IMG/VR virus record: IMGVR_UViG_3300015245_000019
From: a virus
Length of the DNA: 43,164 bases
Direction: 5' to 3' (one strand)
Below, one piece after another: positions 20,323-43,164 of the stretch (the stretch's first letter is position 1; each line of letters begins with the position of its first letter). The notes under the pieces are model-generated. The model was given only the letters and a program-made list of their open reading frames with translations. It had not been told where the DNA came from and ran no database searches. The translations under genes were made by a program, and so were the position numbers.

Positions 20323-21171
20323 TCAGCTACGCTGAACTGGATTGAAGGCTTGCTCGGCTCTTGCCCAGGTCCAGGCGACACCGGCTTTGGCCGTTGTAAT
20401 GGAAGAAGGCACACAGAGCCAGTAGTCCTTGTAGGTGCCGTCCTTTTCTGGCGTGTTGTTTACGACTTTTAGCATACAGAGAGGTTCGTCGTTGGGGATC
20501 TCGGCACGGAAGAGTTGGCCCCAGTCGTCCTGGTGGATGGGCTTCAGCCCCATCGAAGAGATGTAGTTCTCCTTCCCGTAGCAATCGATCAAGATCCTTC
20601 TCTGCTCGATGTTTTTACAATCACGGATCATCGAGATCGGGATCTCGTGGGGGCGCATCACGGCCAGTTCGCCGACTTCGATGCCACGGATGAAGTAGAC
20701 CTTCAAGCCGTCACTGAAAGTGATCGCTGGGCCTTTCGTACTGTGGAGAGAACCGGTCTGGTTGAAGTGAACTGTCACCGGGAAGAAGTCGGACTTGTCG
20801 CCGATCGGAGAGAAGTAACAGGCCTGCCGCCAGACGGTTAGCACGTTGTTCGATAGAGCCCAGGCATCGGGCTGAGTGCGTGGCTTGAACGGTGCGACGT
20901 CTCCGCGATAGTGGATCGCCTCTGTGCCGTAGGTCGGAAAGAGAGCCTTTGCGGCACGGTGCGCCGCGAGACGAGCGCGATCTATTTCGGTCATTGTCGC
21001 AGTGTCAGTGTTGATTGGTTCTGTATCCATGATTAGAGATGGATCCTGTTGAATTTGTGTCCAGCCAGGAGTTGGTGCCCAATGTTGTTGTTGTGAAGCG
21101 AGTTGCTGCCACTCGCGGGCGGCAAAGACCTGCCACCGGGGTGGCGGGGGCTCTTGCGGTACCCCCGCCAC
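20323..21171 (-). CDS. Hypothetical protein with DUF6745-like C-terminal domain
   Basis: Start set at GTG 21171, the first start after the upstream stop (an ATG at MDTEPIN is an alternative). The C-terminus NIEQRRILIDCYG...YWLCVPSSITTAKAGVAWTW resembles DUF6745 as I recall it. Confidence 0.4.
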   Translation of the reverse strand: MAGVPQEPPPPRWQVFAAREWQQLASQQQHWAPTPGWTQIQQDPSLIMDTEPINTDTATMTEIDRARLAAHRAAKALFPTYGTEAIHYRGDVAPFKPRTQPDAWALSNNVLTVWRQACYFSPIGDKSDFFPVTVHFNQTGSLHSTKGPAITFSDGLKVYFIRGIEVGELAVMRPHEIPISMIRDCKNIEQRRILIDCYGKENYISSMGLKPIHQDDWGQLFRAEIPNDEPLCMLKVVNNTPEKDGTYKDYWLCVPSSITTAKAGVAWTWARAEQAFNPVQRS

Positions 21172-21187
21172 CTGCGCCGAAGGCGCC

Positions 21188-21580
21188 TCAGTCAGCGACC
21201 TGACGGGCTTTTGCTTCTCTGTCTCGGGTCTCGGAGCCGTGCTCGTACTCGCGCTGCCGGGTGACCTTCCAGAGACCGGGTTCGAGGGTGATCGGGCCAT
21301 GCTCAGGATGAGTGACCGTAACGCCTTCGGGATTCCGAACATGGAGAATCATCTCCTCGATCGCAGCGTTGTCGTCGGCAGTCAGGACGACAGTTTCCTT
21401 GTCCTCTTCGAGTGCGTGGAAGTGTCCGGTGATCTCGCCCTCAGCGAGGACGATCCGGCCGTAGGCCGTCTTCGTAGGGCTGTAACGGAAGCCCTTCGGG
21501 ATCGAGTCGATCTTCTCGAAGAAGATGTCGCCCTGATGGGCCTGGAGCGGCGGCTGTGCATCCTTCTCTTTCTTCGCCAT
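21188..21580 (-). CDS. Conserved phage protein of unknown function (QGD...EGE.TGH.H...HPEH...QREY pattern)
   Basis: 130 aa. QGDIFFEKI, LAEGEITGHFHAL, THPEHGPITLEPGLWKVTRQREY form a pattern I recognise from many phage genomes. No known function. Confidence 0.6.
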   Translation of the reverse strand: MAKKEKDAQPPLQAHQGDIFFEKIDSIPKGFRYSPTKTAYGRIVLAEGEITGHFHALEEDKETVVLTADDNAAIEEMILHVRNPEGVTVTHPEHGPITLEPGLWKVTRQREYEHGSETRDREAKARQVAD

Positions 21581-22234: not shown

Positions 22235-22256
22235 GTCGTTCCTTTCTGCCGAAGGC

Positions 22257-22328
22257 AGGCGCCGGTGGGACTCGAACCCACGTCAACGGGGTTGCAATCC
22301 GTCGCGTCAACCCTTCCGCCACGGCGCC
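22257..22328 (-). tRNA. tRNA-Cys (anticodon GCA)
   Basis: Hand-folded from the - strand sequence GGCGCCGTGGCGGAAGGGTTGACGCGACGGATTGCAACCCCGTTGACGTGGGTTCGAGTCCCACCGGCGCC+T. Acceptor stem GGCGCCG/CGGCGCC. T arm GTGGG-TTCGAGT-CCCAC. Anticodon loop TTGCAAC. Three-bp D stem with a G13/A22 mismatch, one A-C mismatch in the anticodon stem, 4-nt variable loop. Discriminator U, no encoded CCA. Confidence 0.85.
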
Positions 22329-22654
22329 TATACACGTATGCGGGTCTCAGCTCCCGGTCCTTCCAGGAAAGGATATTGTCCTTGGTCGAAGTTGCGTGCC
22401 ATGGTTTTCACGGCAATTGGCCGCCGGAAAAAGAAGAATTCGTCAGTCGCAACTTCTCCTTTCGGAACGACGGAGGTGATGTATTGGGCCAATGGGCAAG
22501 AAAGAGACTTACCTCTTTCTCCTTTGATGCCGAGCTTATGAAGAGATGCGGCGCATTCGTCGGGAGAAGAGCCCAGAGCTGTCAAGGCTGCTTCTACGCG
22601 TTCTTGGAGATCCAGTCGTTCCTTGGTTCTGGACTGATGTGGTCGTCCCTTCAC
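22328..22654 (-). CDS. Small protein, paralog B of the CP[VL]AQY pair
   Basis: 108 aa from a GTG that overlaps the upstream stop (GTGA). Its TAG stop shares one base with the first base of tRNA-Cys. The 190-aa version in the ORF track overlaps the upstream gene and was trimmed. Confidence 0.5.
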   Translation of the reverse strand: MKGRPHQSRTKERLDLQERVEAALTALGSSPDECAASLHKLGIKGERGKSLSCPLAQYITSVVPKGEVATDEFFFFRRPIAVKTMARNFDQGQYPFLEGPGAETRIRV

Positions 22655-27105: not shown

Positions 27106-28080
27106 CTACTCGTAAAACTGCGCTTCTTCGTTGCTGCTGTCTTTTTCTGCCGCAGGCGGCGGCGGCGGCGGTAGTGCGCCGAGTGGCTGGCCTTTGGATT
27201 CAGGCAACGGCTCCGGGCGGAAGATTTGCTTGCCTTTCTTCCGTACCCAACGGCCACAGACGCCGTTTACGTAACCGATGTTGTTGTCAGCCCATGACTT
27301 GGGTAGTTTGGCGTTTTCCTTTCGCCATGTATCCCAATTGAACCGGCCATAGTCTGTGCTCTTGTAGTTGGGCTGGTAACACAGTCCGATTTCCCGGACT
27401 CGGCCTTGCTGCGGATCCAAACGGCACAGTACTTTGTCGGGTACGGTGTCGGATTTGATGCGATAGTCCATAAGCCAGACGTAATGGGCGGCTCGGTCGA
27501 TGATGCCTTCTGTCGAGGCAAATAGCATGACGCGCGTGCCGTTGGTCAAGTCAACGCGGTAGCTTTCGATCGGGTTTCCGTCTCGAATGAGATAGACCTT
27601 GTTTTCGTGGTAGACGGCGACGGCGGCACTGCCAAAGATGGAGCGTAAGAAGCGCGGCACCTTAAAGATGCCGTTCTTTTCGGCGTAAGCCGAAAATAGT
27701 TCGCTGTCTACGCCGGACGGCCAGAGAAGGCTGTGCGTCTCTGCGACTTTTTCGGGATTTCCGATAACGCCGTTGTGGATTGTGGCGATGCCGGAAGCGG
27801 AGACAAAAGGTTGCGCTTGTTCGTTGCCTTTCTCCCCGCAAGTTGGGGCGCGGGTATGGAGCAAGGCGTAACTTGCGCCGCCTTCGAGAAGCGCGGCGAA
27901 TTCGGGAAGAACGCCGAATTCGTCAGGAGATATGGCGCGTTTGAGTAGTTTGCCGTTCGTGTGAATCCCGGCACTCTGCTTTCCGCGCTCTTGGCCGAAG
28001 AACAAGAGCGCGCGGCATAAGCGCAGCGCCGTCTCGTAGGAAAGCGGTTTACTAGACGCGAAGCCGCTGATGCTGCACAC
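27106..28080 (-). CDS. Class-II (Ntn) glutamine amidotransferase-like protein with C-terminal extension
   Basis: GTG-TGC start gives an N-terminal Cys nucleophile (M)CSISGF. HTRAPTCGEKGNEQAQPF and IHNGVIGN match the purF-type GATase pattern. About 110 extra C-terminal residues end in a poly-Pro tract. An AGGAAGGA RBS is present. Confidence 0.7.
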   Translation of the reverse strand: MCSISGFASSKPLSYETALRLCRALLFFGQERGKQSAGIHTNGKLLKRAISPDEFGVLPEFAALLEGGASYALLHTRAPTCGEKGNEQAQPFVSASGIATIHNGVIGNPEKVAETHSLLWPSGVDSELFSAYAEKNGIFKVPRFLRSIFGSAAVAVYHENKVYLIRDGNPIESYRVDLTNGTRVMLFASTEGIIDRAAHYVWLMDYRIKSDTVPDKVLCRLDPQQGRVREIGLCYQPNYKSTDYGRFNWDTWRKENAKLPKSWADNNIGYVNGVCGRWVRKKGKQIFRPEPLPESKGQPLGALPPPPPPAAEKDSSNEEAQFYE

Positions 28081-29341
28081 GTTGCGGGGTTCCTTCCTTT
28101 GATAATTGGATGTACTCTGTGATGCGGACGTAACGCTCGAAGCGGCGGATGCGCCGGATGACGTACTTTCGGCCTTTGAGAGGCAAGTCGAGAAAGCGAT
28201 AGAAGGAGATGAGAAGTTGCCGGCCGGTTAGACGCTCGTCAGTGATTAAGACTGGAGCCGCTATCGCCTTTGTGACGAAACGGAGCAAGAGAAGGATCCA
28301 TTTCCGGATTAGTGTGGAGTTAACTGTGCCGTGATGGAGTCGGAATTCGTAACTTTTGTGCTTTGAATAGGCCGATGTATTAAGGGCTTGGTAGCGTGTG
28401 TGTTCCGGACGGAATCTCCCTTCCAGTTTGACGGAAGTGCAATAAGTGTTCTTCCGCCGTTGCTGGCGCACCATGGCGAAAAAGATCGGCTCGTAAAGGA
28501 ACCACCAGTACTCGATTTGTTTGCGTTGTGATGCCGTCACGGTTCGCATATCAATATGCACGTGAAAGCCACAAGAACGGTTGGAGTAAGACTGCGATGC
28601 CTTCAAAGCATCGCAAACGGAAGTCACTTGCGAGAGCAAGGTGTCGCCTCTCGCGATGCGGGATGCAAACTCGCGAGGATATCCGCCTTTGGCGGCGGTG
28701 GCCTTTATCGAGCCGTCGGATTTCAAATGGCCAAAGGGGCCGACAAAAGGCAAGTCGGAGAGACAATGTAGAAATTCTAATTCAAAACCTACGAATAGTT
28801 TACTCTTGTTCTGCATGAAAGTCGTGTCGGGAATCGGGAATCTTTGGGAGCATACAGCGCAAAACTTACTGCTATCTATGGTTACGAGGTTATTGGCCGT
28901 GAAATGGTGGTCGCAGTTTATGCATCTATCGCATCCTTCTACCGCGTAGCAACGGCGGCAGCAATGTCGCTGGCCGATACCGGCGTAATTGACAAGGCGG
29001 GATTCATTTGTCAATTCATGCCCTTTACATTGGCGGCACGTGATCCATTGTTCGTCTGAGCAGCAGTTAGAGCAAAGGTGACGAGTCTCTCTAGTGGCGA
29101 GATGCCAATCCATATCCGGGCCTGTCGGGAGAACCCAAACTGCTAACAGTTGGGAATTGCTTTTGTATAGCAATGTGTTACAAGTTAAGCAATTAGAGAA
29201 ATAGAGTTTTGCACATTTCCGGCAGAATTTAGCTCCCGCAACGGACTGATGGGTAAATGGTGCCTTTACCCATTGCACGCCGCATTGGGAGCATTGCCAC
29301 GGGATCGGCTTGTTTGGGGTCAGCTGTGAGGGATCAGGCAT
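28052..29341 (-). CDS. Amidoligase_2-type (GS/GCS2-like) COOH-NH2 ligase with four N-terminal zinc ribbons
   Basis: ATG at 29341 overlaps the upstream stop (ATGCCTGA). The N-terminal ~190 aa carry eight CxxC pairs (CSQC, CRKC, CLTC, CSNC, CRQC, CRRC, CDRC, CAVC). The C-terminal half has VGFELEF, KSDGSI, SCGFHVHID, YQALN and YEFRLHHGT, the PF12224 pattern as I recall it. AT-rich third codon positions. Confidence 0.7.
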   Translation of the reverse strand: MPDPSQLTPNKPIPWQCSQCGVQWVKAPFTHQSVAGAKFCRKCAKLYFSNCLTCNTLLYKSNSQLLAVWVLPTGPDMDWHLATRETRHLCSNCCSDEQWITCRQCKGHELTNESRLVNYAGIGQRHCCRRCYAVEGCDRCINCDHHFTANNLVTIDSSKFCAVCSQRFPIPDTTFMQNKSKLFVGFELEFLHCLSDLPFVGPFGHLKSDGSIKATAAKGGYPREFASRIARGDTLLSQVTSVCDALKASQSYSNRSCGFHVHIDMRTVTASQRKQIEYWWFLYEPIFFAMVRQQRRKNTYCTSVKLEGRFRPEHTRYQALNTSAYSKHKSYEFRLHHGTVNSTLIRKWILLLLRFVTKAIAAPVLITDERLTGRQLLISFYRFLDLPLKGRKYVIRRIRRFERYVRITEYIQLSKEGTPQRVQHQRLRV

Positions 29342-29615
29342 TGTCTGGCTGTTTTCGGGATATGCGGGATACACGTTCGTCGTCTCCCGAGTCGGGGCCG
29401 AAGGGATGATCTAGCCACAGTTTGAGCGGATACGGTTCTAGCCAACTAGGCCGAATTACTTTTCCTTCACCATCGCTTTGATCGTCGCCACACTCCCAAT
29501 ACGGACCTAGTAAAGACTTCGATAGTTTCCACAGCCCGGAACCGTGCTTTGGTATTGCAGCATGAAACCGAACGCGGGGCGCTAGGACCGACGATCGGCT
29601 GGCGGTCAAGGTCAA
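29334..29615 (-). CDS. Hypothetical protein upstream of the amidoligase
   Basis: 93-aa reading from a TTG that overlaps the upstream stop (TTGA). Its 3' part lies in the low-GC island. The start is uncertain. Confidence 0.4.
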   Translation of the reverse strand: MTLTASRSSVLAPRVRFHAAIPKHGSGLWKLSKSLLGPYWECGDDQSDGEGKVIRPSWLEPYPLKLWLDHPFGPDSGDDERVSRISRKQPDNA

Positions 29616-30355: not shown

Positions 30356-31079
30356 GTCGCCAGGCCGTTCCGGCGAATGACAGCACGCACGGTTTCGGGC
30401 TCTTTGCGCCCTGCTACTCCGCTTGCCATGCGGCGATGCTCAGCGCGGCGCGGCGACCGGCGACGCAAGCCGACCTAGCGAACGGCGTGCCAAGTCGCAA
30501 GTCGTTGCGCCGCAACTGGTTCTCTTTTTGCACGGCGCGGTTTGTCGGGCCTTTCGCACGATACGCAACGGCAAGATGCAATGTCGCGCAAAACGCAAGG
30601 CGCATTGCAAGTTGCAAGGTTTTCGCGCGCGCTACTGGAGCGGGAAAGGAGAGCTTGTTGAGACTGTGTCGCAACTATTGATAAACGCTTATGGCGAAAG
30701 GACTTACAGCCTTCTATGTCGGATAAGGACCATTATGTCAACTAGCTGGTACTCATTGCTACTGTTACAGTTACCATCATTCCAGACCCCTACCACCCCT
30801 CGTCCCCCGCGGCCGGATGCAATTCGCATTCCTAGCCCCCTCTTACTCCCGCGCCCACTTTGACTTACGCCCTTCGGGCGTGACAGCAACATTCCGGTTT
30901 GAATCTTTGTGATCTTCTCGGCATCTCACAGTTTGGATCCTCGTGAGGGTTCCTGCAGCTGCCAGTGCCAGGGCTGGTTTGTTCCCTGGCTGGAGGAGGG
31001 GCGCGAAGCGAACCGCGCCTTCCAGGGGTGCGGTGGTTCTAGCCGCACCCCGTTTCATTCCGGCGCATCGAAGGGCTCG
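30356..31079. promoter_or_regulatory. Divergent early/late control region
   Basis: This is the longest stretch without a convincing ORF, between the first - gene and the first + ORF. It has a dense CGCAA/TTGCG motif cluster at 30461-30680, a TTGACT hexamer at 30859-30864 and hairpins at 30867-30881, 30967-30990, 31000-31019 and 31025-31051. No promoter could be pinned down. Confidence 0.5.
31025..31051 (+). terminator. Terminator-like 9-bp hairpin in the late-operon leader
   Basis: GGGGTGCGG-tggttctag-CCGCACCCC followed by GTTTCATT, 29 nt upstream of the first micro-ORF ATG. Confidence 0.35.
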
Positions 31080-31205
31080 ATGATCTACGGGATCTGTACT
31101 CGTACTTTTGGCTATTATTTCTGGAAGCCCGACTGCCCATGCCACGACTGCCAGCTGTGGACCACCTGGCTCCATCGCATCGCGAGGCTGGCTCCGCCAG
31201 AATGA
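31080..31205 (+). CDS. Micro-ORF a (41 aa, MIYGICTRTFGYYFW..., Cys/aromatic-rich)
   Basis: ATG at 31080 with an AAGGG RBS 5 nt upstream. Its stop overlaps the ATG of micro-ORF b (ATGA). A longer GTG-initiated version (30909) has no RBS and spans the leader hairpins. Confidence 0.35.
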   Translation: MIYGICTRTFGYYFWKPDCPCHDCQLWTTWLHRIARLAPPE

Positions 31206-31426
31206 TCTCCGTCTACGGTTTCGGCTTCGTGGTGCGGTATCCGACTCGGATGGAGGCCGAGCTGTACCGTTCCTACTCCCAGCCTGGGCGCCGCTATCCC
31301 GTAACGACATCGGGCTACGCCTCCGGCATCGGTAGCGCCTTCTTCTTCCAGCAGCAGCAACGCCTTCTGCAACAGCGCGCCATCTTCGAGCAGCAGCACC
31401 CGCAGTGGCAACGCTCTCCCCGATGA
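31202..31426 (+). CDS. Micro-ORF b (74 aa, MISVYGFGF...)
   Basis: ATGA coupling at both ends. Aromatic and Gln-rich sequence. It shares its N-terminus with micro-ORF c. Confidence 0.45.
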   Translation: MISVYGFGFVVRYPTRMEAELYRSYSQPGRRYPVTTSGYASGIGSAFFFQQQQRLLQQRAIFEQQHPQWQRSPR

Positions 31427-31632
31427 TTCCAGTCTACGGCTTCGGCTTTCGGCGGTGGGCCGAAGTTGGATCCTTCAGGATGCACAATGGTATAATCTGG
31501 ACAGATTATTGGCTCGACTGGCTGGGTGATACGGCAGGTTTTACGACGGGCTACTTCACGGTGGGAACGGGCAATGGGCAAGGGACGGCCGGCGACAAAG
31601 TTGAAGGAGATCCAGCAGTACCTGCTGGTTGA
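31423..31632 (+). CDS. Micro-ORF c (69 aa, MIPVYGFGF...)
   Basis: ATGA coupling to micro-ORF b. Trp/Tyr/Gly-rich. Its last ~58 nt overlap the terS-candidate start. Confidence 0.4.
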   Translation: MIPVYGFGFRRWAEVGSFRMHNGIIWTDYWLDWLGDTAGFTTGYFTVGTGNGQGTAGDKVEGDPAVPAG

Positions 31633-32173
31633 GGCGGCTCTCGGCCGCCATCCCACTTTGTGGGAAGCGGCCGACGCGACGAAGGCCCACTACATGACGG
31701 TCTCGCGAGCACGAGCTTCGCTCGTGAACACCGGCCAGCTCCCCGCACCGCCGCGCTCTTACAAGCCGCCTCGGGCCGTGCGGGTCGCAACGGAGTCGCC
31801 GTCAGCCTCCGACCAAGGCCATCCTGCCGCGGTGCGGCCCGCCGTCCCGTCTCTTCCCTCCTCTCCTGAGCCGGATAGTTCACAAAGTAAGGACGAGGAC
31901 GAAGTCCTCCGCGCCATCTCGGTATCTCTCTCTCCGGAGGAGCAGCGCGAAGAGCTGTCTCGTCTTGCCCGCGACGCCTCTCGCGACGAAGTCCGCGTCA
32001 GCGCGCTAAGCGCGCTCGCACGTCTCGACTCCATGACCGGCTCTCAAGTTGGTGCCGGCATTCCACCGCCTCTCACGGAGGAGGACCGCATTGCGCGGCT
32101 ATCAGTTCTTTGCCGGGCCGTCGGTGAAAGCGTGGCTCGACTTGCGTTCAAGATGGCCTTCAACCGTGAATGA
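31574..32173 (+). CDS. Small terminase subunit candidate (N-terminal HTH)
   Basis: Start set at MGKGRPATKLKEIQQYLL... HTH-like region TLWEAADATKAHYMTVSRARASL, a disordered Pro/Ser linker and a helical C-terminus. It lies upstream of terL. Confidence 0.5.
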   Translation: MGKGRPATKLKEIQQYLLVEAALGRHPTLWEAADATKAHYMTVSRARASLVNTGQLPAPPRSYKPPRAVRVATESPSASDQGHPAAVRPAVPSLPSSPEPDSSQSKDEDEVLRAISVSLSPEEQREELSRLARDASRDEVRVSALSALARLDSMTGSQVGAGIPPPLTEEDRIARLSVLCRAVGESVARLAFKMAFNRE

Positions 32174-32336
32174 CACTCCTCCCATACCTATCTATTCCGA
32201 CCACGAGCGGCAACTGTTGGCCAAGATCCGGGAGAACGAAGAGCGCGTTACCCGGCTCGCGATAACCAACAAGATGCTCCGCGCCGCAATCGAGGACATG
32301 AAGGACCTACTGAGGAGCTATGGCCACGAAGTCTAG
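32166..32336 (+). CDS. Small coiled-coil protein
   Basis: 56 aa from a GTG overlapping the terS-candidate stop. ERQLLAKIRENEERVTRLAITNKMLRAAIEDMKDLL. Confidence 0.4.
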   Translation: MNDTPPIPIYSDHERQLLAKIRENEERVTRLAITNKMLRAAIEDMKDLLRSYGHEV

Positions 32337-32517
32337 ACGCACCAAAACGCACGTCTCGAAGTTCGAATTCAAGACGTCGGACGATCTGGTCCGCTTTATT
32401 ACGGCAGTTGATGTATACGATACGCGTTACTATCCACCATTGCTCTTACCGAAGGACGGATGGAGAACCCCCGACCTCGAAGGACTGCCAGTCTATGGAT
32501 ATGGCTTCTCTTTCTGA
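32320..32517 (+). CDS. Small protein ending in PVYGYGFSF
   Basis: 65 aa with an ATG start overlapping the previous ORF. The C-terminal residues carry the VYGYGF motif at 32491-32508. Confidence 0.45.
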   Translation: MATKSRRTKTHVSKFEFKTSDDLVRFITAVDVYDTRYYPPLLLPKDGWRTPDLEGLPVYGYGFSF

Positions 32518-32677
32518 GATCGGGGTTTACGGCTACGACCTGGCACGGGATTACCACGTCATAGTGGCTGGCATGACCGGTCATCTGCTGGAACGCATCG
32601 AAACCGACATCTTCGCCCTCTACTCCAAGGATGGAGTTGATGACGATAAACGCCCCGCCCAGCCCTCCTCTCCCTGA
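32495..32677 (+). CDS. Small protein MDMASLSEIGVYGYDLARDY...
   Basis: 60 aa from the ATG at 32495, which lies inside the previous ORF's motif codons. It overlaps the terL start by 47 nt. Confidence 0.35.
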   Translation: MDMASLSEIGVYGYDLARDYHVIVAGMTGHLLERIETDIFALYSKDGVDDDKRPAQPSSP

Positions 32678-34442
32678 GCCGGATAGTGTAGCCGGCGCCT
32701 TCGGCGCTTGGTCCTCCGACGACGAAGCGGCTCTTTGGGCCGACATCTGCCGGGAGTCCTTCTGGTGGTTCCTCCAAATTGCCTGGGGTGCGGCCTTCTA
32801 CATGGAGGCCAATCCCCACGACCGCTGGCTAACCGAGCGCCTCCACAAGCCGATCTGCGACTGGCTGGAGCGGCACGCCCGGGACTGGGAGGGCCGGCGC
32901 GCCGCCGGCTTGAAGGAGAGGAAGAAGCTCGCCGTCATCCTTCCCCGGTCCTACGGGAAGACGGTCATCGTGACGAAGGCCCTCACGCTCTGGGCTCACA
33001 TCAGAAATCCTAACATCGCCACCTACATCGGCAGCGAAACTGCTGAGAAGGCCCTCGACTTCCTCCGGCCCGTGAAGGCGGTCCTCGACGGAAGCGATGG
33101 TTTTTCTCGCTTCACGAAGCTCTACGGCAACTGGTACAACCCAGAACGGCTGTGGACTCACAGAACACTTGTTCACGCGATGCGTGAACAAGTAGGCCGT
33201 TCAGAGCCATCGTTTGACACTTGGGGAGTGGAGCAGGGCATCACCGGCGCCCACCCCGACTGGGGAGTCTTCGATGACCCGATCTCGGAAGAGAAGCTCA
33301 AGGACAGTGGGGCCTGGATCAGTTCCGTCAACACCGCGATTGCGGCTCTCCGCCCGGCATTTCGCACGGATTCTTTCTTTGTGTTGGTCGGCACCCGTTA
33401 CCGGGACAACGACGCCATCGGGACCTACCTTCCGATGGAAGGGGTAAAGACCTGGTCGGGAATGCAGTGCCCTGAGGCTCGCCTCTCCCCGCAGGAGAGG
33501 GGAGAGTGGGACGTGTACTACCTCCAGGCCCTCGACAACAATGGGGAGAGCACTTTCCCCGAGATGTGGCCGACGGAGGAACTACGTAAGTACCAAGGGT
33601 CGAAGTCGATCGAGTTCGCCTCGCAGATGATGAATGATCCCGCCTCGGGGGAGCATATGGTCCTCACGATGGAACAGGTGGACCAGCTCTGGGTGGAGAA
33701 GGAGAACCTCCCAAGTTATCTCTCCTACTCGATCCACTGCGACACGGCTTTTAAGGCGATGGCGAGGATGGGCCGCGGGGACGAGTCGGTCGTCGTGGTC
33801 TTCGGCCACGACATGCGCGGCAACGGGGACGTGTACTACATCGAGGGCTACGGATCGAACACCTGGCGCATAGAAGAGTTCACTGACGAGCTGTTGAAGA
33901 TCTGCCAGAACTACAAGCGGCAAGGGAAGCGGATTCGGATCCTCACGGACGAGCGGGAGATGGGCGGGAAGACCGGCACTTGGGAGTCGTGGCTCCGAAG
34001 TGCCTTCGCGGGAGCCGGCGTGCTGATGCCGCCATTTCAACTGCTCAACAGGTCGAAACTGAAGAAGGAACTCCGCATCCGGGAAGCCGCAGGCTTCTGG
34101 GTTGATGGCCACGTCAGGCTGATTCGCGGCGCACCGGGCGTCCACCGCCTCCTTACCCAGATGATTCGGATCGGCGTTTCGGCCCACGACGACTGGGCCG
34201 ACGCTGCTGCCGACACCTTCGCCCCCGAAGTCTACAAGCCGATGCTCAACCCGGAGCGCAGCTCCGGGGACGATGGTGCCTATCCCGTCCAGCCAGGTGA
34301 CGACTTCCTCGGCCGGCGTTTGACGAACGACGCCGTCCGGAAGTTCTATGACGTCGCGAATGGTCAGTGGGTGAACAAGTTCTTCGACGAAAGAGAAGAG
34401 GAAATGAGCAAATGGGCTGCAAACATTAAAGATGTCTCTTGA
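32631..34442 (+). CDS. terL: Terminase large subunit
   Basis: 603 aa. Walker A-like ILPRSYGKTV and Walker B VFDDPISEE. C-terminal RNase H-like nuclease region (YSIHCDTAFK, VVVVFGHD, DDWADAAAD). Confidence 0.85.
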   Translation: MELMTINAPPSPPLPEPDSVAGAFGAWSSDDEAALWADICRESFWWFLQIAWGAAFYMEANPHDRWLTERLHKPICDWLERHARDWEGRRAAGLKERKKLAVILPRSYGKTVIVTKALTLWAHIRNPNIATYIGSETAEKALDFLRPVKAVLDGSDGFSRFTKLYGNWYNPERLWTHRTLVHAMREQVGRSEPSFDTWGVEQGITGAHPDWGVFDDPISEEKLKDSGAWISSVNTAIAALRPAFRTDSFFVLVGTRYRDNDAIGTYLPMEGVKTWSGMQCPEARLSPQERGEWDVYYLQALDNNGESTFPEMWPTEELRKYQGSKSIEFASQMMNDPASGEHMVLTMEQVDQLWVEKENLPSYLSYSIHCDTAFKAMARMGRGDESVVVVFGHDMRGNGDVYYIEGYGSNTWRIEEFTDELLKICQNYKRQGKRIRILTDEREMGGKTGTWESWLRSAFAGAGVLMPPFQLLNRSKLKKELRIREAAGFWVDGHVRLIRGAPGVHRLLTQMIRIGVSAHDDWADAAADTFAPEVYKPMLNPERSSGDDGAYPVQPGDDFLGRRLTNDAVRKFYDVANGQWVNKFFDEREEEMSKWAANIKDVS

Positions 34443-34504
34443 CACACGCGAAGTGCGCCGTATCGTTTCCCGTGTGGCCAAAGGCCACACGGGAGGGGCA
34501 GCGG

Positions 34505-35218
34505 GTGGCGGACGAGTATCAGCAGATTGTTGAAGACCTAGCACCGGAGGCGCCAGCGGCGCCTCCGGACATTGCCGCGCCTCTCCTCCCCCCCGAGACG
34601 GTTCCAGCTGGTTACCCAAGGCCACCGCACGACGCTGATTTTCGCGTCGTCTACTTCGATCTAGAGATCCGTAACTCCATCGAGTCTTGCGGGGGCTGGG
34701 AAGGCGCCATCAGCCAAGGCGGAGTCTCAGCTCTTTGTCTCTGGGACTCGATCGACGAAAACGCCGTCTTCTACGACGACCACTGCCTCGATACTGCAGC
34801 TCTCCACCTCGAAGATGCCGACGTCGTTGTGTCTTTCAACGGGAAGGCTTTCGACGTGCCGCTTATCGAGCGGCATCTCCGGCGCACCCTTCACCTGAAA
34901 GAGCACATCGACGTCTTCGAGCTGGCGAAGAAGGGCCTTGAGCGATACGGCAAGCCGTGGAAGGGCAACGGTCTCGATGCTCTATCATCGAAAACGGTCC
35001 ATCGCGGAAAGAACGGCGTAGGTTCCCACGCTCCGCAACTCGTTGCGGAGGGCCACTGGGCGGAGTTGTTCACCTACTGCCTTCGAGACGTGGTTCTCAC
35101 CCGCGATTTGCTCACCTTTGCCCGCCGAAACGGCTACATCTTCGATAAGGACGGCCAAGTCTTGCCTCTAGATGTCCCGAGCTGGCTGCAGCTGCGCCCC
35201 GGAGTAACGCCCAAGTGA
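34505..35218 (+). CDS. DEDD / RNase H-like 3'-5' exonuclease (YprB-like)
   Basis: Start set at a GTG with a GGGAGGGG RBS; the ORF track starts at TTG 34439. VVYFDLEIRN, VVSFNGKAFDVPLIERHL, HIDVFE and TYCLRDVVLTRDLL follow the DEDD pattern. Confidence 0.6.
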   Translation: MADEYQQIVEDLAPEAPAAPPDIAAPLLPPETVPAGYPRPPHDADFRVVYFDLEIRNSIESCGGWEGAISQGGVSALCLWDSIDENAVFYDDHCLDTAALHLEDADVVVSFNGKAFDVPLIERHLRRTLHLKEHIDVFELAKKGLERYGKPWKGNGLDALSSKTVHRGKNGVGSHAPQLVAEGHWAELFTYCLRDVVLTRDLLTFARRNGYIFDKDGQVLPLDVPSWLQLRPGVTPK

Positions 35219-37131
35219 CCTCTATGAGTGAGGTAAGGCTGGACCCAACCGCCGAAGGGCGCCGGGACCAGATTGCCGGGCTAGTTCGGGCAAGAAAAGA
35301 GCACTCGGAGAACCACTTTTCGGGGATCCGGAGAGAACTCCCCCAGTACTACGATCTCTATCGCGGCGTCATCACGGGCCGGCACACCCCGCACAAGAAC
35401 AACATCCACATCCCGCTGATTTTTAGCACCATTCAGAGCGACGTGGCGCGGAAAACCCAGACGTCCTTCGGCTCTTGGCCGATTGTGTCGTTCGTTGGCT
35501 ACGATCCGGGTGATGCGTCGCTTGCTCGGAAGCGCGAGGCCCTCATCTCGGCGCAAATGCGCGACATGGGCATCTTTAGGAAGGGCTACGAGGTGTTTCT
35601 CACGGCGGATCTCTACGGAACGGCCGTTATTCGCTACGGGTGGGACCGAAGAGACCAAGAGATGGATGTCGAACGGTTCGATCGCCTTCCGCTGAGCGGG
35701 AAGATGGTCCGAGTAGCGAATCAGCAGACCGTTACCATCTTCGACGGCCCGAACTTCGTGGTAAAGGATCTCCTCGACTGCTTTCCGCAGCCCGGTTTCC
35801 GCACAATCGAGACGATGGGCTGGTTCTGTGAGCAGGACTACATGGATTGGGACCTGATCCGCATGTATTCTGAGATGCCGATGAGCGGAGGGTACTTTTT
35901 CGACCCTGCAGAGGTCGAAAGGATGAGAACTGACGGCGGAACGTCGGTCACAGAGATCGACACGCAGGACTACAAGAGCTGGAGGACGCAAAGCCGCACG
36001 ATGGTCGAGGAAGACGCTCGGCAGAGCGAGCGATACGCCCGTCCAGTAAAACTGATCACGATGTGGGGAAAGATTCCGTCGGAGTTGGCCCCGGACGGTA
36101 TCGTGGATCGCGTGATCACTGTGGCCAACGGCAAATACGTCCTCCGGAACCGACCGATTCCCTTCTGGGCAGGACAGAAACCGTTCTTTGCGTATTCTCC
36201 AATGCCGGATCCGCACTACTTTTTTGCCGCGGGAAAGGCCGAAGTGGCGGCGAAGTTGCAGGTGCTCGCAAACCGTTTCACCAACCAGCAGCTCGATGCG
36301 CTGGAGATCTTCATCGATCCGGTCTTCTTCGTGAACTTGAATAGCGGCCTCGATACGAGGAATCTGTTTATCCGACCGGGCAAGTTTATCCCGATGGACG
36401 GAAACCCGGCCGAGATGATCATGCCGCTCCAGCCGAACCTGACTGGCCTCCAGCTGGGCGGGCAGATGACAGAGTCTGTCTGGCGGTGGATGCAGCAAGG
36501 CTCTGGCATCGTCGAAGACACCGTCATGGGGGGCGGCGCGCAGAGACAGACAGCGCGGGAGTTCTTAGGGCGGAGCGAAGCTGTCGCCACGCGGCTTCTG
36601 ATGGAGTCTCGCATGTTCGAGGAGATCTTCCTGGAGCCGCTTGCCGACACTTTCGTCGATCTAAACCGCCAGTTCCTTGAGCACGACAAAGAGGTCTTTA
36701 TCCTCGGGCAGAGTGCCGACCAGGATCCCGTCACTGGCGAGCCGGTCCCAGCCCAAACCCGTCTTCTTGTTACCGGCTTCGATCTTGTGCCGAACTACGA
36801 AGCACGGGCTCTTGGATCGACGACAAAGCTGGCTCGGAGTCAGCGCCAGCAGACGTTGACGTTCCTCATGCAGGCGATGGGGTCGAATCCGATGGTGGCG
36901 TCTGCCGTGAACTGGATCAACTTCTTCCGGGACACGCTTCGTGAGTTCGAGATCGCCAACGTGAACGAGATCATCAACACGCCGGCGCAACAGGCGGCAA
37001 TGATGCAGGCCCAGCAAGGCGCCGGAGCGGCTCCGGGACCTGCCGTCCCCGGCCAGGCAGCAGAACCGCGGCTTGTGGTTAGCGGCGGATTGCCGACTCT
37101 GCCGGGTCAGGGCACTGAGACGATACAGTAA
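35215..37131 (+). CDS. Portal (head-tail connector) protein, podovirus/T7 gp8-like
   Basis: 638 aa with a GTGA overlap on the upstream gene. It follows terL. The N-terminal pattern YYDLYRGV...NIHIPLIFSTIQSDVARKTQTSFG resembles T7-type connector proteins. Confidence 0.8.
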   Translation: MTSMSEVRLDPTAEGRRDQIAGLVRARKEHSENHFSGIRRELPQYYDLYRGVITGRHTPHKNNIHIPLIFSTIQSDVARKTQTSFGSWPIVSFVGYDPGDASLARKREALISAQMRDMGIFRKGYEVFLTADLYGTAVIRYGWDRRDQEMDVERFDRLPLSGKMVRVANQQTVTIFDGPNFVVKDLLDCFPQPGFRTIETMGWFCEQDYMDWDLIRMYSEMPMSGGYFFDPAEVERMRTDGGTSVTEIDTQDYKSWRTQSRTMVEEDARQSERYARPVKLITMWGKIPSELAPDGIVDRVITVANGKYVLRNRPIPFWAGQKPFFAYSPMPDPHYFFAAGKAEVAAKLQVLANRFTNQQLDALEIFIDPVFFVNLNSGLDTRNLFIRPGKFIPMDGNPAEMIMPLQPNLTGLQLGGQMTESVWRWMQQGSGIVEDTVMGGGAQRQTAREFLGRSEAVATRLLMESRMFEEIFLEPLADTFVDLNRQFLEHDKEVFILGQSADQDPVTGEPVPAQTRLLVTGFDLVPNYEARALGSTTKLARSQRQQTLTFLMQAMGSNPMVASAVNWINFFRDTLREFEIANVNEIINTPAQQAAMMQAQQGAGAAPGPAVPGQAAEPRLVVSGGLPTLPGQGTETIQ

Positions 37132-37436
37132 TGCCACTCGACGAGGCTCACGAGGCGCTGTCAAGGCTGCTCTTGAATCCGGCTTGGGACGGGGTTATCA
37201 AAACCCGGATTAACTTGATGGTGAAAACGCTGTACAATCAGATCATCGACCCGTCGCAGAACCGGAAGGACAGAGCAAGTGACGACTTCATTCGGGGACA
37301 GATACAGGCTCTGAAGTGGGTTGTGACGTTCCCCGACGAGGAGATGAACCACGCAGTAACGGAGATCCTAATGGAGGCGGAGCCTCCTCCGCCTCCGCCG
37401 CTGTTCGGCGACCAAGGAAGGACGCCCAATGAGTGA
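37131..37436 (+). CDS. Hypothetical protein between portal and scaffold
   Basis: 101-aa ORF with a TAATG overlap on the portal stop. Poly-Pro near the C-terminus. Confidence 0.55.
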   Translation: MPLDEAHEALSRLLLNPAWDGVIKTRINLMVKTLYNQIIDPSQNRKDRASDDFIRGQIQALKWVVTFPDEEMNHAVTEILMEAEPPPPPPLFGDQGRTPNE

Positions 37437-38403
37437 CGAAGTAGCACCTCCTACAAAAGAGCAGACCGCAGAAGAGGCAAAAGGCAGTTTGCTGGATGCT
37501 ATCTCCCAGCAGGCTCTCGATGCCACTGGCGGGGACGTGTATCGCGCGGGTCAGCCCCTCGCGACTCCGGACCAGCCCCCTGTGGCCCCTGCAAAAGCGG
37601 CGGCTGATGCCGCCGCTGGCGGCGAAGAGACCTCCTCTTCTCAGCCGAAGGCTGAGGAACCGCTCGATAGACTTGGGCGGCTTCTCGGCAATAAGTACAC
37701 CTCGATCGAAGAGGCGGAGAAGGGCATCCACCAGCTGCTCCAAGACCGGAAGGCGGCGCAAGACTCTGCGACGAACGCTCATGCTGAGCTAGAGCGTATC
37801 CGCGGTGCCGTTGTAGCGAATGGCCACGCAGCGGCAGAGCCGCCGCCGGACCCTATGTCGGAGCTGGAGATGCTCGGATTCCCGAAGGACATCATGGAGA
37901 GGGCGATTGAACACAAGCTGCGAGCTGTTATCGCAGCGGATGCTAAGCCCTTCAATGAGCGCGTGGCTGCGGACAAGGAGATCGTCGGAAAGTACCCCGA
38001 CTATGAGAAGCAATTCGATGAGCTGAGCAGCTGGCTCGGGCAACACAAAGACATCGAAAAGCAGGTGCTTCTTGCGGAGAACGCGGGCCACTACACGCTG
38101 GCGAGAGAATTCGCCTGGCTCCAATTCGATCGAGACAAGGCAGCGAGGACAGAGACCCAAACAACCGATGCGGCAGCGGAAACCGCCGTGAAGCGCACAG
38201 AGAAGAGAAGTGACGCGAGGACCTTTCAACCCAGCCAGACAACGGAAGCTCGTATCCCGCCTCCAGCGGAAAACCGGAATGTGATCGGCAAAGACGAGTT
38301 TCAGAAGCTAACGGACCTTGCGAGGGCGGGCTACGAGCAGCCGCTCTGGCGCAGAACGATCGGAGAGACGCTGTCTAAAGACGTGTTTCCAGATTCGAAT
38401 TAG
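37429..38403 (+). CDS. Scaffolding protein
   Basis: 324 aa with an AAGGAAGGA RBS. Ala/Glu/Lys-rich helical composition. It sits between the portal and the major capsid gene. Confidence 0.6.
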   Translation: MSDEVAPPTKEQTAEEAKGSLLDAISQQALDATGGDVYRAGQPLATPDQPPVAPAKAAADAAAGGEETSSSQPKAEEPLDRLGRLLGNKYTSIEEAEKGIHQLLQDRKAAQDSATNAHAELERIRGAVVANGHAAAEPPPDPMSELEMLGFPKDIMERAIEHKLRAVIAADAKPFNERVAADKEIVGKYPDYEKQFDELSSWLGQHKDIEKQVLLAENAGHYTLAREFAWLQFDRDKAARTETQTTDAAAETAVKRTEKRSDARTFQPSQTTEARIPPPAENRNVIGKDEFQKLTDLARAGYEQPLWRRTIGETLSKDVFPDSN

Positions 38404-38419
38404 CGGCGCGTAGCGCCGC
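38403..38419 (+). promoter_or_regulatory. 7-bp hairpin abutting the capsid-gene RBS
   Basis: GCGGCGC-gta-GCGCCGC read directly. It ends 1 nt before the GGAGGG RBS of the capsid gene. Confidence 0.35.
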
Positions 38420-38431
38420 GGAGGGCCAAGG

Positions 38432-39448
38432 ATGGCAGCTCCTGGTAATTTTGGGGTCTATGGATTCGGCTTTCTCGCAGGAGCGGGGGCGAATCGAGAG
38501 GACCTGCTAGACCTCATCACCAACGTGGATCCGTGGGACACTCCGTGGGTGTCTCAGGCGCCGAAGGTGCGCGCCATGCACGTGGTCCACGAGTGGCTGA
38601 GGGACACGCTTGCCGCCACGAGCACCGCTTCTGGCGCCGCAGGCGCCATTGCCGTTGAAGGTGACGACTGGGCGTACAACACGCTCACGACACGCCCGAC
38701 GCGGGTGACGAATCAGACGATGATTTTCCGGAAGGACATCGCGGTGTCTGAGACACAGCGAGCCGTCAATCCGGCCGGCTTCAAGGACGCGTACAGCTAC
38801 GAAATCGCGAAGGCGACGAAAGAACTCGCCAGGAACATGGAAGTTTGGTTCTTCCACGTCTGTGCGACGGGCGATACGGGGTCGAGTGCCGCGGTGCGCC
38901 GCGCGATCGGCTTCCAGGGCTTCATCACAACGACGGCTGCCACAAACCGTACCGTTTCCTCCCTCGGCTCTGCAACGAACAACAGCGGTGTGCTTACGCA
39001 GAACGACATCAACAACGCTCTGCAGGACGCCTTTACCAACGGTGCCGATCCGGAGCTGGTTTTTGTCTCTCCGGCCATCAAGCGGCAGATTAGTGCATTC
39101 ACTGTCACCCAGCAAAACCGAAACATCGCTGCGATCGAGAAGAAGCTCGTCAACTCGGTGGATTTCTACCTCAGCGACTTCGGAATGATTCAGCTGATTC
39201 TCGACCGTTGGGTTCCTCAAGCGGCGAGCACGAGCACCGCGACGGCGCAGGCTACGGACGTCTCGGGGAACATCTTCTTCCTCGAACGTGCAAAGAACCG
39301 TCTCGCATGGTTACGGCCGATGGCTCACACGCTCATCGGGAAGCGCGGCGACAGTGTCGCCGGGTCGATTCTCGGAGAAGTAACGCTCGAAGTGCTCTCG
39401 GAAAGAGCGAACTACCGCATCAATCGCGTCAGTAACGTCACTGCGTAG
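38432..39448 (+). CDS. Major capsid protein (DUF5309 / SU10-type, HK97-fold)
   Basis: 338 aa with a GGAGGG RBS. EDLLDLITNVDPWDTPWVSQAPKVRAMHVVHEWLRDTL matches the N-terminal signature of DUF5309-type capsid proteins as I recall it. It follows the scaffold and is followed by a strong hairpin. Confidence 0.8.
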   Translation: MAAPGNFGVYGFGFLAGAGANREDLLDLITNVDPWDTPWVSQAPKVRAMHVVHEWLRDTLAATSTASGAAGAIAVEGDDWAYNTLTTRPTRVTNQTMIFRKDIAVSETQRAVNPAGFKDAYSYEIAKATKELARNMEVWFFHVCATGDTGSSAAVRRAIGFQGFITTTAATNRTVSSLGSATNNSGVLTQNDINNALQDAFTNGADPELVFVSPAIKRQISAFTVTQQNRNIAAIEKKLVNSVDFYLSDFGMIQLILDRWVPQAASTSTATAQATDVSGNIFFLERAKNRLAWLRPMAHTLIGKRGDSVAGSILGEVTLEVLSERANYRINRVSNVTA

Positions 39449-39487
39449 CAGTGACGTGGGCCAGGGAAGGCCCAGTTGGAGGAGAGC

Positions 39488-39515
39488 GGTGCGGGCTGCC
39501 GGCCCGCGCCGCACC
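39488..39515 (+). terminator. GC-rich hairpin after the capsid gene
   Basis: GGTGCGGGCTGCCGGCCCGCGCCGCACC: outer stem GGTGCGG/CCGCACC and inner stem GCGGGC/GCCCGC. There is no clear U-tract, so it may only attenuate or stabilise the transcript. Confidence 0.45.
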
Positions 39516-39532: not shown

Positions 39533-39787
39533 ATGGCGAAGCCATATCGGACCGGAGTAAAGGAGATCCAAGAAGAGGATTTCCTAGTTGCAGATCACGG
39601 TATTCCGACCAGCTATATCGAGCCCGGCTTAGTGTCTCAGGGACCAATGGAAGTAGTTGAAGCTCCCGGCGACACCCAGGGCAATTCTGGCTGGACGGCT
39701 GTGAAGGCACCGACCGACGACAACGATACGGTGGAAGGCGTTTCTGCCCAGAAGGGGAATCCTTTCCCAGGCGGAGGTTGGAACTGA
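39533..39787 (+). CDS. Hypothetical protein
   Basis: 84-aa ORF with a GGAGG RBS (ggaggttcaaATG). Confidence 0.55.
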   Translation: MAKPYRTGVKEIQEEDFLVADHGIPTSYIEPGLVSQGPMEVVEAPGDTQGNSGWTAVKAPTDDNDTVEGVSAQKGNPFPGGGWN

Positions 39788-42254: not shown

Positions 42255-43164
42255 ATGGCGATGACGAGGGGCAATGCGAAGACGTACATCGCAAGAGCCC
42301 TTTCTGGATCTTCCGATACGGACCGGCTGGCTCAGGCGCAGGACGCCCTTTTCGCGGCCCTGCAAGAGTGGAATATCCGGAACGACTGGTCTTTTCTTTT
42401 GATGGACACCAGTAACGGCTTTTCCGTTGCCGCTTGTACGCAGACGCTGGGTAATACACTTACGACGGCAACGGCTGATGGTTTCGCCGCCGTCAATGTT
42501 GGACAGACTGCCGTCGGAGCCACGATCGGGACGGTCACCGTGACGGCTATCGTCTCGACGACGGTTGTAACTGTCTCGGGAGGCGCCAATAACGGCCCGG
42601 AGACGTTGGTTTTCTCCGCTGACATTCCGGTAAGGGCGACTTTCGATACCTACAACCTGCCGTCACCGGTAAAGCGACCGTACTCGGCGCGGCTTCTTAT
42701 CAACAACAAACGTCTTGAGTTCCGCGACCAGAGACGGATCGATCGGATGTTCTCGAACCTGAGCGTAGGAGGAGAGCCCGGCCTCTACAATGTGTTCAAC
42801 ACGGCATCCTTTTCGACAAGTACACAGAACGGAAAGGTGCGTCTTTTCCCTATTCCGAGTTCTGCGGAGACGCTCCGGGTACGGTATCACCGGCCGATTG
42901 CTGAAACCAATTCTGATGCTCTGAATCTAGACGTCCCGGATCGGTACGTCTACGCGCTTCTAGAGCTGGGCCGATACAACTACTTGAAGGATCTGGACTC
43001 GGAGAATCCACGGACCGGGGAAGCAAAGGAAAGGGCTGAACATTTGCTTCGCAGGGCAATCTGGGATGACACTCAGGGCTCTGCCGACAATGATATTCTT
43101 CTGATTCCGCACGTCGATCACGGGCAGTTCCGGCAAATTGACTCCTCGGACGCTATTCTCGAAG
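42255..43164 (+). CDS. Tail tubular protein A / adaptor (T7 gp11-like); continues across the circular join to base 88
   Basis: The ATG follows directly after the previous stop and the frame stays open to the window edge. After removing the duplicate 77 nt the total is about 306 aa. AQDALFAALQEWNIRNDWSFLL and VPDRYVYALLELGRYNYLKD parallel T7 gp11 [20 protein letters not shown] and [20 protein letters not shown] as I recall that sequence. The gp12-sized gene follows. Confidence 0.6.
   Translation, partial: MAMTRGNAKTYIARALSGSSDTDRLAQAQDALFAALQEWNIRNDWSFLLMDTSNGFSVAACTQTLGNTLTTATADGFAAVNVGQTAVGATIGTVTVTAIVSTTVVTVSGGANNGPETLVFSADIPVRATFDTYNLPSPVKRPYSARLLINNKRLEFRDQRRIDRMFSNLSVGGEPGLYNVFNTASFSTSTQNGKVRLFPIPSSAETLRVRYHRPIAETNSDALNLDVPDRYVYALLELGRYNYLKDLDSENPRTGEAKERAEHLLRRAIWDDTQGSADNDILLIPHVDHGQFRQIDSSDAILE
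43088..43164. repeat. Terminal direct repeat, copy 2 of 2
   Basis: Exact 77-nt copy of bases 1-77 at the right edge of the window. Confidence 0.97.

Follow-up and report, generated by a model that had tools for sequence, protein, structure and literature searches.

A hexapeptide matching the tip of the capsid N-terminal arm recurs in small open reading frames before terL: a candidate docking peptide

The stretch of viral DNA analyzed in the present study (IMG/VR record IMGVR_UViG_3300015245_000019; 43,164 nt, hereafter the window) encodes the hexapeptide pattern VYG[FY][GD][FL] five times: once near the N-terminus of the major capsid protein, and once in each of four small open reading frames (ORF-B, ORF-C, ORF-D and ORF-E) located before terL, the gene for the large terminase. 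This recurrence is not a product of chance, and the conservation acts at the level of the peptide. By alignment, the hexapeptide forms the very tip of the capsid N-terminal arm (N-arm), a tip that is conserved family-wide, and ORF-D carries a copy of the remainder of this arm as well. These observations suggest that the hexapeptide may function as a docking peptide mimicking the capsid arm, a reading to which a probability of about 0.4 is assigned. Independently of that function, ORF-D shows that a capsid N-arm, once copied, can persist free-standing as a gene of its own.

The window represents a complete circular phage contig of ∼43,087 bp, as its termini overlap exactly over 77 nt (1-77 / 43088-43164), so that a motif scan of the window is a whole-genome count. 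A six-frame scan returned exactly five sites, all on the plus strand:

31211-31228, plus strand: motif copy in ORF-B (MISVYGFGF, residues 4-9)
31432-31449, plus strand: motif copy in ORF-C (MIPVYGFGF, residues 4-9)
32491-32508, plus strand: motif copy VYGYGF in ORF-D (...GLPVYGYGFSF*, residues 58-63 of 65)
32525-32542, plus strand: motif copy VYGYDL in ORF-E (MDMASLSEIGVYGYDL, residues 11-16)
38456-38473, plus strand: motif copy VYGFGF in the capsid protein (residues 9-14, GTC TAT GGA TTC GGC TTT)

All five copies are in frame in ORFs with coding signal, and in four of them no more than 16 residues separate the motif from the start codon. An earlier inspection of the letters alone, referred to here as the sequence-only reading, had reported the copies in ORF-D, ORF-E and the capsid protein, with a 17-nt gap between the end of the ORF-D copy and that of ORF-E; its coordinates and translations are correct, as is the gap, with ORF-E in the +1 frame. 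It had proposed a comparison of a six-frame pattern scan with random expectation, and the result supports it: the six-residue pattern was absent from all 300 composition-matched second-order Markov simulations (5 copies observed), and the shorter VYG[FY] occurred on average 0.31 times per simulated genome, with a maximum of 3, again versus 5 observed. Its remark that third codon positions vary while the amino acids are kept also holds, since the copies in ORF-B, ORF-C and the capsid gene differ at only three nucleotides, each a third codon position, and the ORF-D copy adds a single conservative change, F to Y. For ORF-D, whose third codon positions are scrambled relative to the capsid gene, selection is on the peptide.

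This pattern bears directly on the idea that the repeated unit is the 18-nt GTCTAYGGNTWYGGCTTY itself, an RNA or DNA site near start codons (a translational operator or a protein-binding site) whose peptide identity is incidental. All five copies are located no more than ∼45 nt from a start codon, and that of ORF-B forms one arm of a hairpin (31174-31238) that hides the ORF-B start codon (−40.4 kcal/mol, z = −2.56). However, the five copies are all read in the same codon phase with their differences at third positions, and the similarities in relatives are found at the protein level with codons scrambled. Furthermore, the four 5' regions share no fold around the motif (z = −2.56, +0.76, −2.40 and −1.25, with unrelated structures), and an Rfam scan retrieved a tRNA as its sole match and no family in the motif region. 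A nucleic-acid element is therefore barely plausible. The ORF-B hairpin would fit a translational coupling of ORF-B to ORF-A, the ORF immediately upstream.

The small ORFs, with ORF-A included, are as follows:

31080..31205, plus strand: ORF-A, 41 aa, MIYGICTRTF..., with a Shine-Dalgarno-like (SD-like) GAAGGG 4 nt 5' of the ATG
31202..31426, plus strand: ORF-B, 74 aa, isoelectric point (pI) 10.6 (basic), begins MISVYGFGF
31423..31632, plus strand: ORF-C, 69 aa, pI 4.6 (acidic), begins MIPVYGFGF
32320..32517, plus strand: ORF-D, 65 aa, an N-arm copy and, C-terminally, a second motif; SD-like sequence upstream, coding score highest in its own frame
32377..32436, plus strand: N-arm-like segment of ORF-D, SDDLVRFITAVDVYDTRYYP, 8/20 residues identical to the capsid protein
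32495..32677, plus strand: ORF-E, 60 aa, pI 4.4, shifted to the +1 frame with respect to ORF-D, with an overlap into the beginning of terL; SD-like GAAGGA 10 nt 5' of the ATG at 32495

Are these ORFs translated at all, or is the capsid copy the only real protein among them? Their sizes (41-74 aa) and weak codon scores favor the latter, as does the lack of both an SD sequence and homologues for ORF-B and ORF-C. Under a codon model derived from the large genes of the phage, the small ORFs taken whole score 0.06-0.11 bits per codon versus 0.26-0.36 for terL and the capsid gene. For ORF-B to ORF-E such low values are as expected, because these genes comprise only 60-74 aa, and for each of the four the highest score among the six frames is nonetheless that of its own frame. 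In addition, ORF-A is joined to ORF-B, and ORF-B to ORF-C, by ATGA stop/start overlaps, and SD-like sequences precede ORF-A, ORF-D and ORF-E. ORF-B and ORF-D are present in protein collections (P0121 and P0122, respectively) and had thus already been predicted by a gene caller. Among the relatives, which are related phage loci labelled L001, L002 and so on (at least 568 IMG/VR contigs encode a capsid relative, and 80 were used), L001 contains a significant counterpart of ORF-D and an apparent one of ORF-E, the latter recognized by eye and position. With chance recurrence of the motif also excluded, absence of translation appears very improbable. ORF-A is less clear; its codon usage offers no support, and tblastn found no homologue of it in related loci. 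It shares the start ATGAT[CT] with ORF-B and ORF-C and is possibly a degenerate first member of this tandem set as well as a coupling leader. Homology of ORF-A to the capsid arm was considered and rejected (shuffle p = 0.47). A GC-rich, terminator-like hairpin (31025-31051) is located just 5' of ORF-A.

The capsid protein itself is readily assigned, and its N-arm provides the reference for the motif:

38432..39448, plus strand: major capsid protein of SU10/DUF5309 type, HK97 fold (PF17236 SU10_MCP)
38432..38545, plus strand: capsid N-arm, approximately residues 1-38, comprising the tip motif, the acidic helix NREDLLDLITN and DPWDTP, delimited by alignment to Pa223 gp65 residues 15-40

The PF17236 match (E = 9.3e-67) covers residues 19-332 and spans positions 8-290 of a 292-position profile. 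The protein also matches Pa223 gp65 (9NY2) over residues 20-330 (E = 4.4e-21) and SU10 gp9 (7Z45; E = 1.2e-8), and 368 capsid homologues were found. The sequence-only reading had asked whether DUF5309-type capsid homologues bear the motif, and they do so at the N-terminus: 120 of them read G-N-[FA]-G-[VTAS]-Y-x-[FYW]-G-[FLIV], and in an alignment of 48 sequences Tyr10 is invariant and Gly13 at least 90% conserved, giving a core of G-x-Y-x-[FYW]-G. The closest relatives carry VYGFGF or TYGFGF, and those farther away VYKFGF, VYKWGL, AYLFGV, TYTFGG and similar variants. In the same 48-sequence alignment, conservation along the capsid protein peaks in the segment that follows the tip, NREDLLDLITNVDPWDTPW..AP. 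In HK97-fold capsids, the extended N-arm touches neighboring subunits. An AlphaFold2 model of the capsid monomer shows a beta-rich body with a long spine helix at residues 114-141, and confidence (pLDDT) below 50 for residues 1-47, in which it places a helix at 22-26; low values in the arm are expected because this segment is ordered in the lattice only, and the monomer model is uninformative on a partner. In Pa223 gp65, the N-arm comprises residues 1-33 and the virion model spans residues 1-317 (bioRxiv 10.1101/2025.06.11.659172). Because the capsid protein of the window aligns to gp65, whose modelled virion protein keeps arm residues 1-33, its own N-arm is predicted to stay on, uncleaved.

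ORF-D shares more than the hexapeptide with this arm. Its residues 21-37 match capsid residues 23-39 (BLASTP E = 0.006), a similarity that is retained with the hexapeptide removed (shuffle p = 5e-4). L001 encodes an orthologue of the same length at the same position (3863-4060, 65 aa, E = 8e-10 to ORF-D), which contains REDLIDFIVAIDPWDTPWVQPAP; this segment and residues 22-44 of the L001 capsid protein share 74% identity (E = 7e-12; shuffle p = 5e-4). In this pair, 17 of 23 residues are identical but only 7 of those 17 codons, and codon positions 1, 2 and 3 agree at 18, 19 and 10 of 23 sites, respectively. For ORF-D and the capsid gene of the window, the corresponding values are 12, 12 and 3 of 20. 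Because third positions are scrambled, the arm copy in ORF-D must be of old date and maintained for its peptide; neither a DNA duplication of recent origin nor a motif at the nucleotide level would look like this. Judging from these alignments, ORF-D is a paralogue of the capsid N-arm. Both D proteins end in an aromatic-glycine motif, VYGYGFSF* in the window and CWGFGLG* in L001. Beyond L001, which was the only tblastn match in related loci, a search of 1.8 billion protein representatives returned only ORF-D itself and a spurious eukaryote-like repeat protein (P0123).

In several relatives, an insertion of ∼0.6 kb interrupts the capsid gene within the segment encoding the N-arm, directly following ...NVDPWD (or NVSP). 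The sites are located in L028 (3403-3510 / ∼4105-5001) and L064 (9308-9415 / ∼9995 onward), and also in L059, L065 and L072/L094. The inserted ORF contains a LAGLIDADG-like motif (AAYLAAMLDGEGHISG; IAYAAGIFDGEGHVGG), and the insertion looks like an intron or a homing-endonuclease insertion, although no group I intron was found in the split capsid genes by Rfam at the gathering score. Intron-homing co-conversion was considered as an origin of ORF-D, which spans the insertion site; yet its third positions are random, and a recent co-conversion is rejected because the DNA of ORF-D is too diverged.

ORF-E overlaps the end of ORF-D, and this twin arrangement of motifs is also found in L001. There, the apparent ORF-E counterpart, which was undetected by tblastn, runs from a TTG at 4053 to a last sense codon ending at 4196 and reads MADEAVYGLDL...MNQIESDLF. 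This counterpart overlaps the end of the D gene in the +1 frame and has the motif VYGLDL, and the starts of the D and E motifs are offset by 31 nt in L001 versus 34 nt in the window. At the same place, L002 encodes a single 115-aa ORF with one copy, PAFGWGVSYDV (PAFGWGVSYDVPRW...EEEEVFAKF), and L080 (85% capsid identity) encodes NLEVFGYGLRAW directly before terL. A programmed frameshift joining ORF-D and ORF-E was rejected on inspection, as ...TCT TTC TGA offers no slippery context and the −1 frame ends at 32564. The portal protein contains V-[YT]-G-[WF]-D-L at a conserved position (36760-36780 in the window, ...LLVTGFDLVPNYEARA; 8260 in L002, ...REQVYGWDLVPNYEARA), resembling the VYGYDL of ORF-E; this resemblance is probably due to chance.

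Copies of the arm tip also occur in more distant relatives, on proteins of another kind. Two hidden Markov models (HMMs) were used, the first built from capsid N-termini and run over all ORFs of the loci, the second built from capsid arm tips only with a threshold of 8 bits. The first picked up small, very basic proteins with an arm-tip copy at their start. The arm-tip HMM retrieved 11 ORFs outside the screened capsid set at or above this threshold versus none among reversed-sequence decoys. Three of the 11 (two in L086, one in L091) are apparent capsid-gene sequence that slipped through the screen. The other eight are the small basic proteins, in which 17 residues at the start copy the arm tip:

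L026 11561-11734: small basic protein, MDTSYSYGVTPGKGANKEDL-RGGRKAPSKRR...
L021 9925: small basic protein, start as in L026
L033 12408: small basic protein, start as in L026
L068 12081: small basic protein, start as in L026
L027 11706: small basic protein, MDTSYKFGVLPGEGVN...
L017 ∼4470: small basic protein, MSSSYDMGAKPGSGANREDL...
L037 ∼8095: small basic protein, METTYDMGVTPGKGANREDI...
L065 6852: small basic protein, MASTTYNYGSRPSKGVNREDI...

These proteins comprise 53-80 aa, of which the first ∼20 residues represent the arm-tip copy, with the consensus M-x2-3-[ST]Y-x-[YFM]-G-x-x-P-G-x-G-x-N-[KR]-E-D-[LI]. Their codons are likewise scrambled at third positions. Their genes form part of an array of small basic proteins that is flanked by the capsid and adaptor genes, and thus lie 3' of the capsid gene and not before terL. 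They are rare (7 IMG/VR contigs by a degenerate DNA pattern, 6 protein clusters), have no Pfam or PHROG match, and all database members are unannotated. A profile built from them finds a matching peptide close to the C-terminus in beta-rich proteins (294-389 aa) whose genes lie 3' of terL:

L065 3012-3893: beta-rich protein, reading TSYTYGFRPGIGFNQEDI (HMM E = 1.8e-5)
L062 3701-4867: beta-rich protein, weak match (E = 0.5)
L021 1224-2240: beta-rich protein, weak match (E = 5)

The sequence comparisons show that, within this phage group, other proteins have on several occasions received a copy of the capsid arm or of its tip, and that selection on the peptide has retained these copies. A broader generalization, that the arm tip (as the hexapeptide in the window, as the 17-residue form in relatives) is a general head-loading tag of the group and that any small protein acquiring it is taken into the procapsid via the mimicked subunit contact, is unlikely.

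The same evidence can be weighed for an origin as an evolutionary by-product, in which a partial duplication of the 5' end of the capsid gene produced ORF-D and local tandem duplications produced the A/B/C and D/E sets, without any partner in common and perhaps without a function. Derivation from the capsid N-arm is demonstrable for ORF-D, and ORF-A, ORF-B and ORF-C look like tandem paralogues with their common ATGAT[CT] start. The content of the region before terL differs in every relative, with small ORFs gained and lost rapidly; ORF-B and ORF-C are orphans, and L006 lacks the D/E pair. Nevertheless, the flanks of the copies show no DNA similarity, and only the 18 nt are kept, differing at synonymous sites only. 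Between ORF-D and the capsid gene, third positions are saturated and the first and second conserved; the motif is kept in both overlapping frames in two diverged phages; and independent, non-homologous proteins in other lineages bear a longer copy of the arm tip. A by-product origin is somewhat unlikely, though the main rival to docking. If the small genes are inert duplicates, the finding shrinks to a curiosity of a fast-evolving region.

In the favored reading, that of a docking peptide, mimicry of the capsid arm would be the simplest mechanism. The N-arm is extended and becomes ordered in the assembled shell only. The small proteins carry the arm tip at a free end, N-terminal in ORF-B, ORF-C and ORF-E and C-terminal in ORF-D, which copies the rest of the arm as well. 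The shared peptide would then seat otherwise unrelated small proteins at the site normally taken by the capsid arm tip, candidate receptors being the scaffold, a neighboring capsid subunit, or the portal vertex with its missing capsid subunits. As an outcome, the small proteins would be recruited to the procapsid or capsid. All carriers of the motif would share a binding partner, and we infer that the small proteins may be present in the virion, with a possible downstream role such as that of cargo delivered with the DNA.

Several observations weigh against this reading. The proposal that the small proteins are components of the particle is based on sequence only, and the sequences single out none of the partners that the sequence-only reading had named (portal, scaffold, terminase or a host factor). 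The sequence-only reading had suggested that small proteins mimic the capsid N-arm, which stands for ORF-D (p = 5e-4) and fails for ORF-B, ORF-C and ORF-E beyond the hexapeptide (shuffle p = 0.95, 0.82 and 1.0, respectively); the arm-like appearance of ORF-C (I..D.W..W) and ORF-E (LLERIETDIF versus LLDLITNVDPW) was accordingly discarded (p = 0.82-1.0). ORF-B matches only itself among 5.8 billion proteins, a scan of JGI metagenome contigs returned no relative of ORF-C, and ORF-A, ORF-B, ORF-C and ORF-E gave no tblastn match in the related loci examined. Because ORF-B and ORF-C have no homologues, conservation of their motif across genomes is not demonstrable. L001 to L005 contain no strict motif outside the capsid gene, other than a VYGWDL in the portal of L002/L003 that is probably due to chance. 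L006, which is as close to the window as L001, has neither ORF-D nor ORF-E; because these are missing there, the small genes are accessory and dispensable and not core assembly parts. The D/E set is a narrow, dispensable accessory family, and the motif is its one constant feature. The small basic proteins of other lineages are not homologous to ORF-B to ORF-E, so any support that they lend is by analogy. Finally, co-variation of arm tip and mimic is only hinted at: identity of a mimic to its own capsid tip is 0.61 versus 0.56 to non-own tips (permutation p ∼0.03), from six non-independent pairs.

A more active role for the mimics can also be considered, with free copies of the arm competing for the scaffold or a neighboring subunit and thereby timing or limiting assembly, chaperoning capsid protein before it assembles, or poisoning a co-infecting related phage. 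The evidence for mimicry applies equally to such a decoy or regulator; moreover, ORF-D copies the whole arm, acidic helix included, and is not a mere tag, and the genes are located at the head of the late operon. Conversely, the genes are dispensable in the close relative L006, and since their expression coincides with that of the capsid gene of the same phage, a poison would hit the phage itself. The sequences do not separate a decoy from passive docking. A decoy or regulatory function is decidedly unlikely.

Returning to the favored docking reading, its candidate partners are encoded in the same late module, which is organized as follows:

from ∼31080, plus strand: start of the late module, small ORFs
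31574..32173, plus strand: conserved helix-turn-helix (HTH)-like protein in the terS position, with same-position homologues in L001, L002, L006 and others
32166-32336, plus strand: small coiled-coil-like ORF
32631..34442, plus strand: large terminase, terL (PHROG 38, E = 3e-53)
34439-35218, plus strand: RNase H-like / PolB-exonuclease-like protein, 259 aa, between terL and the portal gene
35215-37131, plus strand: SU10-type portal (PF23899 SU10_portal, E = 5.5e-23)
between the portal and scaffold-position genes, plus strand: 101-aa ORF
37429..38403, plus strand: scaffold-position protein, 324 aa, between the portal and capsid genes as in relatives

The product of 37429..38403 is a putative scaffold and candidate N-arm partner, a role assigned from gene position alone; neither it nor the HTH-like protein has a Pfam or PHROG match. 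No prohead protease was found among 33 ORFs scanned against Pfam, a set that includes most of the large plausible genes. In relatives, the corresponding module contains the SU10_adaptor family, and the RNase H-like gene occupies the same place between terL and the portal gene (RNase_H_2 matches in L002/L003). The gene directly 3' of the capsid gene (39533-39787) encodes a small acidic protein with a conserved C-terminus, ...PGGGW(N)*, a further terminal aromatic-glycine motif in the head module; counterparts are found in L001 (11145-11411), L002 (11220-11459) and L004 (11098-11397), and that of L011 begins MKDNTYGFDSW. The leftward arm, which is the early or replication arm, encodes a pair of Amidoligase_2 and glutamine-amidotransferase genes (27106-29374, minus strand), a DUF6745 protein (20323-21342, minus strand) and a tRNA-Cys (22254-22329, minus strand).

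The nearest genomes are metagenomic: L001 and L006/L084 (82%), followed by L002/L007 (76%), L008 (70%) and L004 (67%), and a second metagenome scan returned no relative closer than 82%. The nearest cultured phages reach at most 34% capsid identity, and the region 30400-39500 of the window gave no megablast match in 50,697 phage records.

How minor proteins are chosen to enter or decorate the head is poorly understood in podophages without a prohead protease, and several known systems offer comparisons. The T-even internal proteins (IPI, IPII, IPIII and Alt) are described as diverse proteins that share only a capsid targeting sequence (CTS), which in T4 loads them into the prohead and can carry foreign proteins into the head (PMC3012670). 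The likeness lies in a short, shared N-terminal peptide on otherwise unrelated, rapidly evolving small accessory proteins, a description that ORF-B, ORF-C and ORF-E fit: the motif is N-terminal, and the rest of each protein has no significant similarity to the capsid protein, the similarity of the three to one another being judged by eye only. The T4 CTS targets the scaffolding core and is cut off by the prohead protease gp21. Unlike this system, no protease was detected among the ORFs scanned here, and removal of the tag finds no counterpart; the tag is the capsid's own arm tip, and the copy in ORF-D is C-terminal.

Terminal extended peptides of accessory proteins also dock on HK97-fold lattices. 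In P74-26, the capsid E-loop and N-arm form a sheet that the arms of Dec and of the portal-vertex protein (PVP) extend by further strands, with PVP located at the portal vertex (PMC12407722). In Pa223, a phage with a capsid protein of the family found in the window, the capsid spike gp52 is anchored solely by its N-terminal residues 2-41 (bioRxiv 10.1101/2025.06.11.659172). Unlike the small ORF products, Dec, PVP and gp52 possess sizeable globular domains and no reported sequence similarity to a capsid arm, whereas the proteins studied here have only 60-74 aa and a peptide that copies the arm. ORF-B to ORF-E have no Pfam or PHROG match and would be too small for the known outer domains of the Dec, PVP or gp52 type. 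The open-access literature yielded no report of sequence mimicry of a capsid arm or of a free-standing arm gene.

Two further systems offer parallels. In P22, the N-arm of the coat protein is the scaffold-binding site, and the scaffold is required for loading of the portal and ejection proteins. By analogy, an arm copy with the acidic EDL segment, which both ORF-D and the small basic proteins retain, could ride on the scaffold; the P22 proteins differ in having no sequence relationship to those of the window, where the scaffold is assigned by gene position. In encapsulins, whose shell has the HK97 fold, cargo proteins of many kinds are guided to the inner shell surface by a short terminal peptide, which parallels the arrangement proposed here. 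The cargo-loading peptides of encapsulins are usually C-terminal, have another consensus and are unlike the arm of the shell protein, whereas the tag of the window resembles it.

If the tag is indeed a copy of the arm tip, a simple, testable rule would govern the entry of minor proteins, and the receptor site of the arm tip would be an assembly hub. A short peptide would also be available for cargo loading into the capsids of a widespread environmental phage group. On the unlikely view that the arm tip is a general head-loading tag, the hypervariable genes before terL would represent interchangeable cargo, possibly effectors co-delivered with the DNA like T4 IPI*. The arm tip would then correspond to the T4 capsid targeting sequence while working by self-mimicry and independently of a protease, and would be a potential tag for directing foreign proteins into podophage heads.

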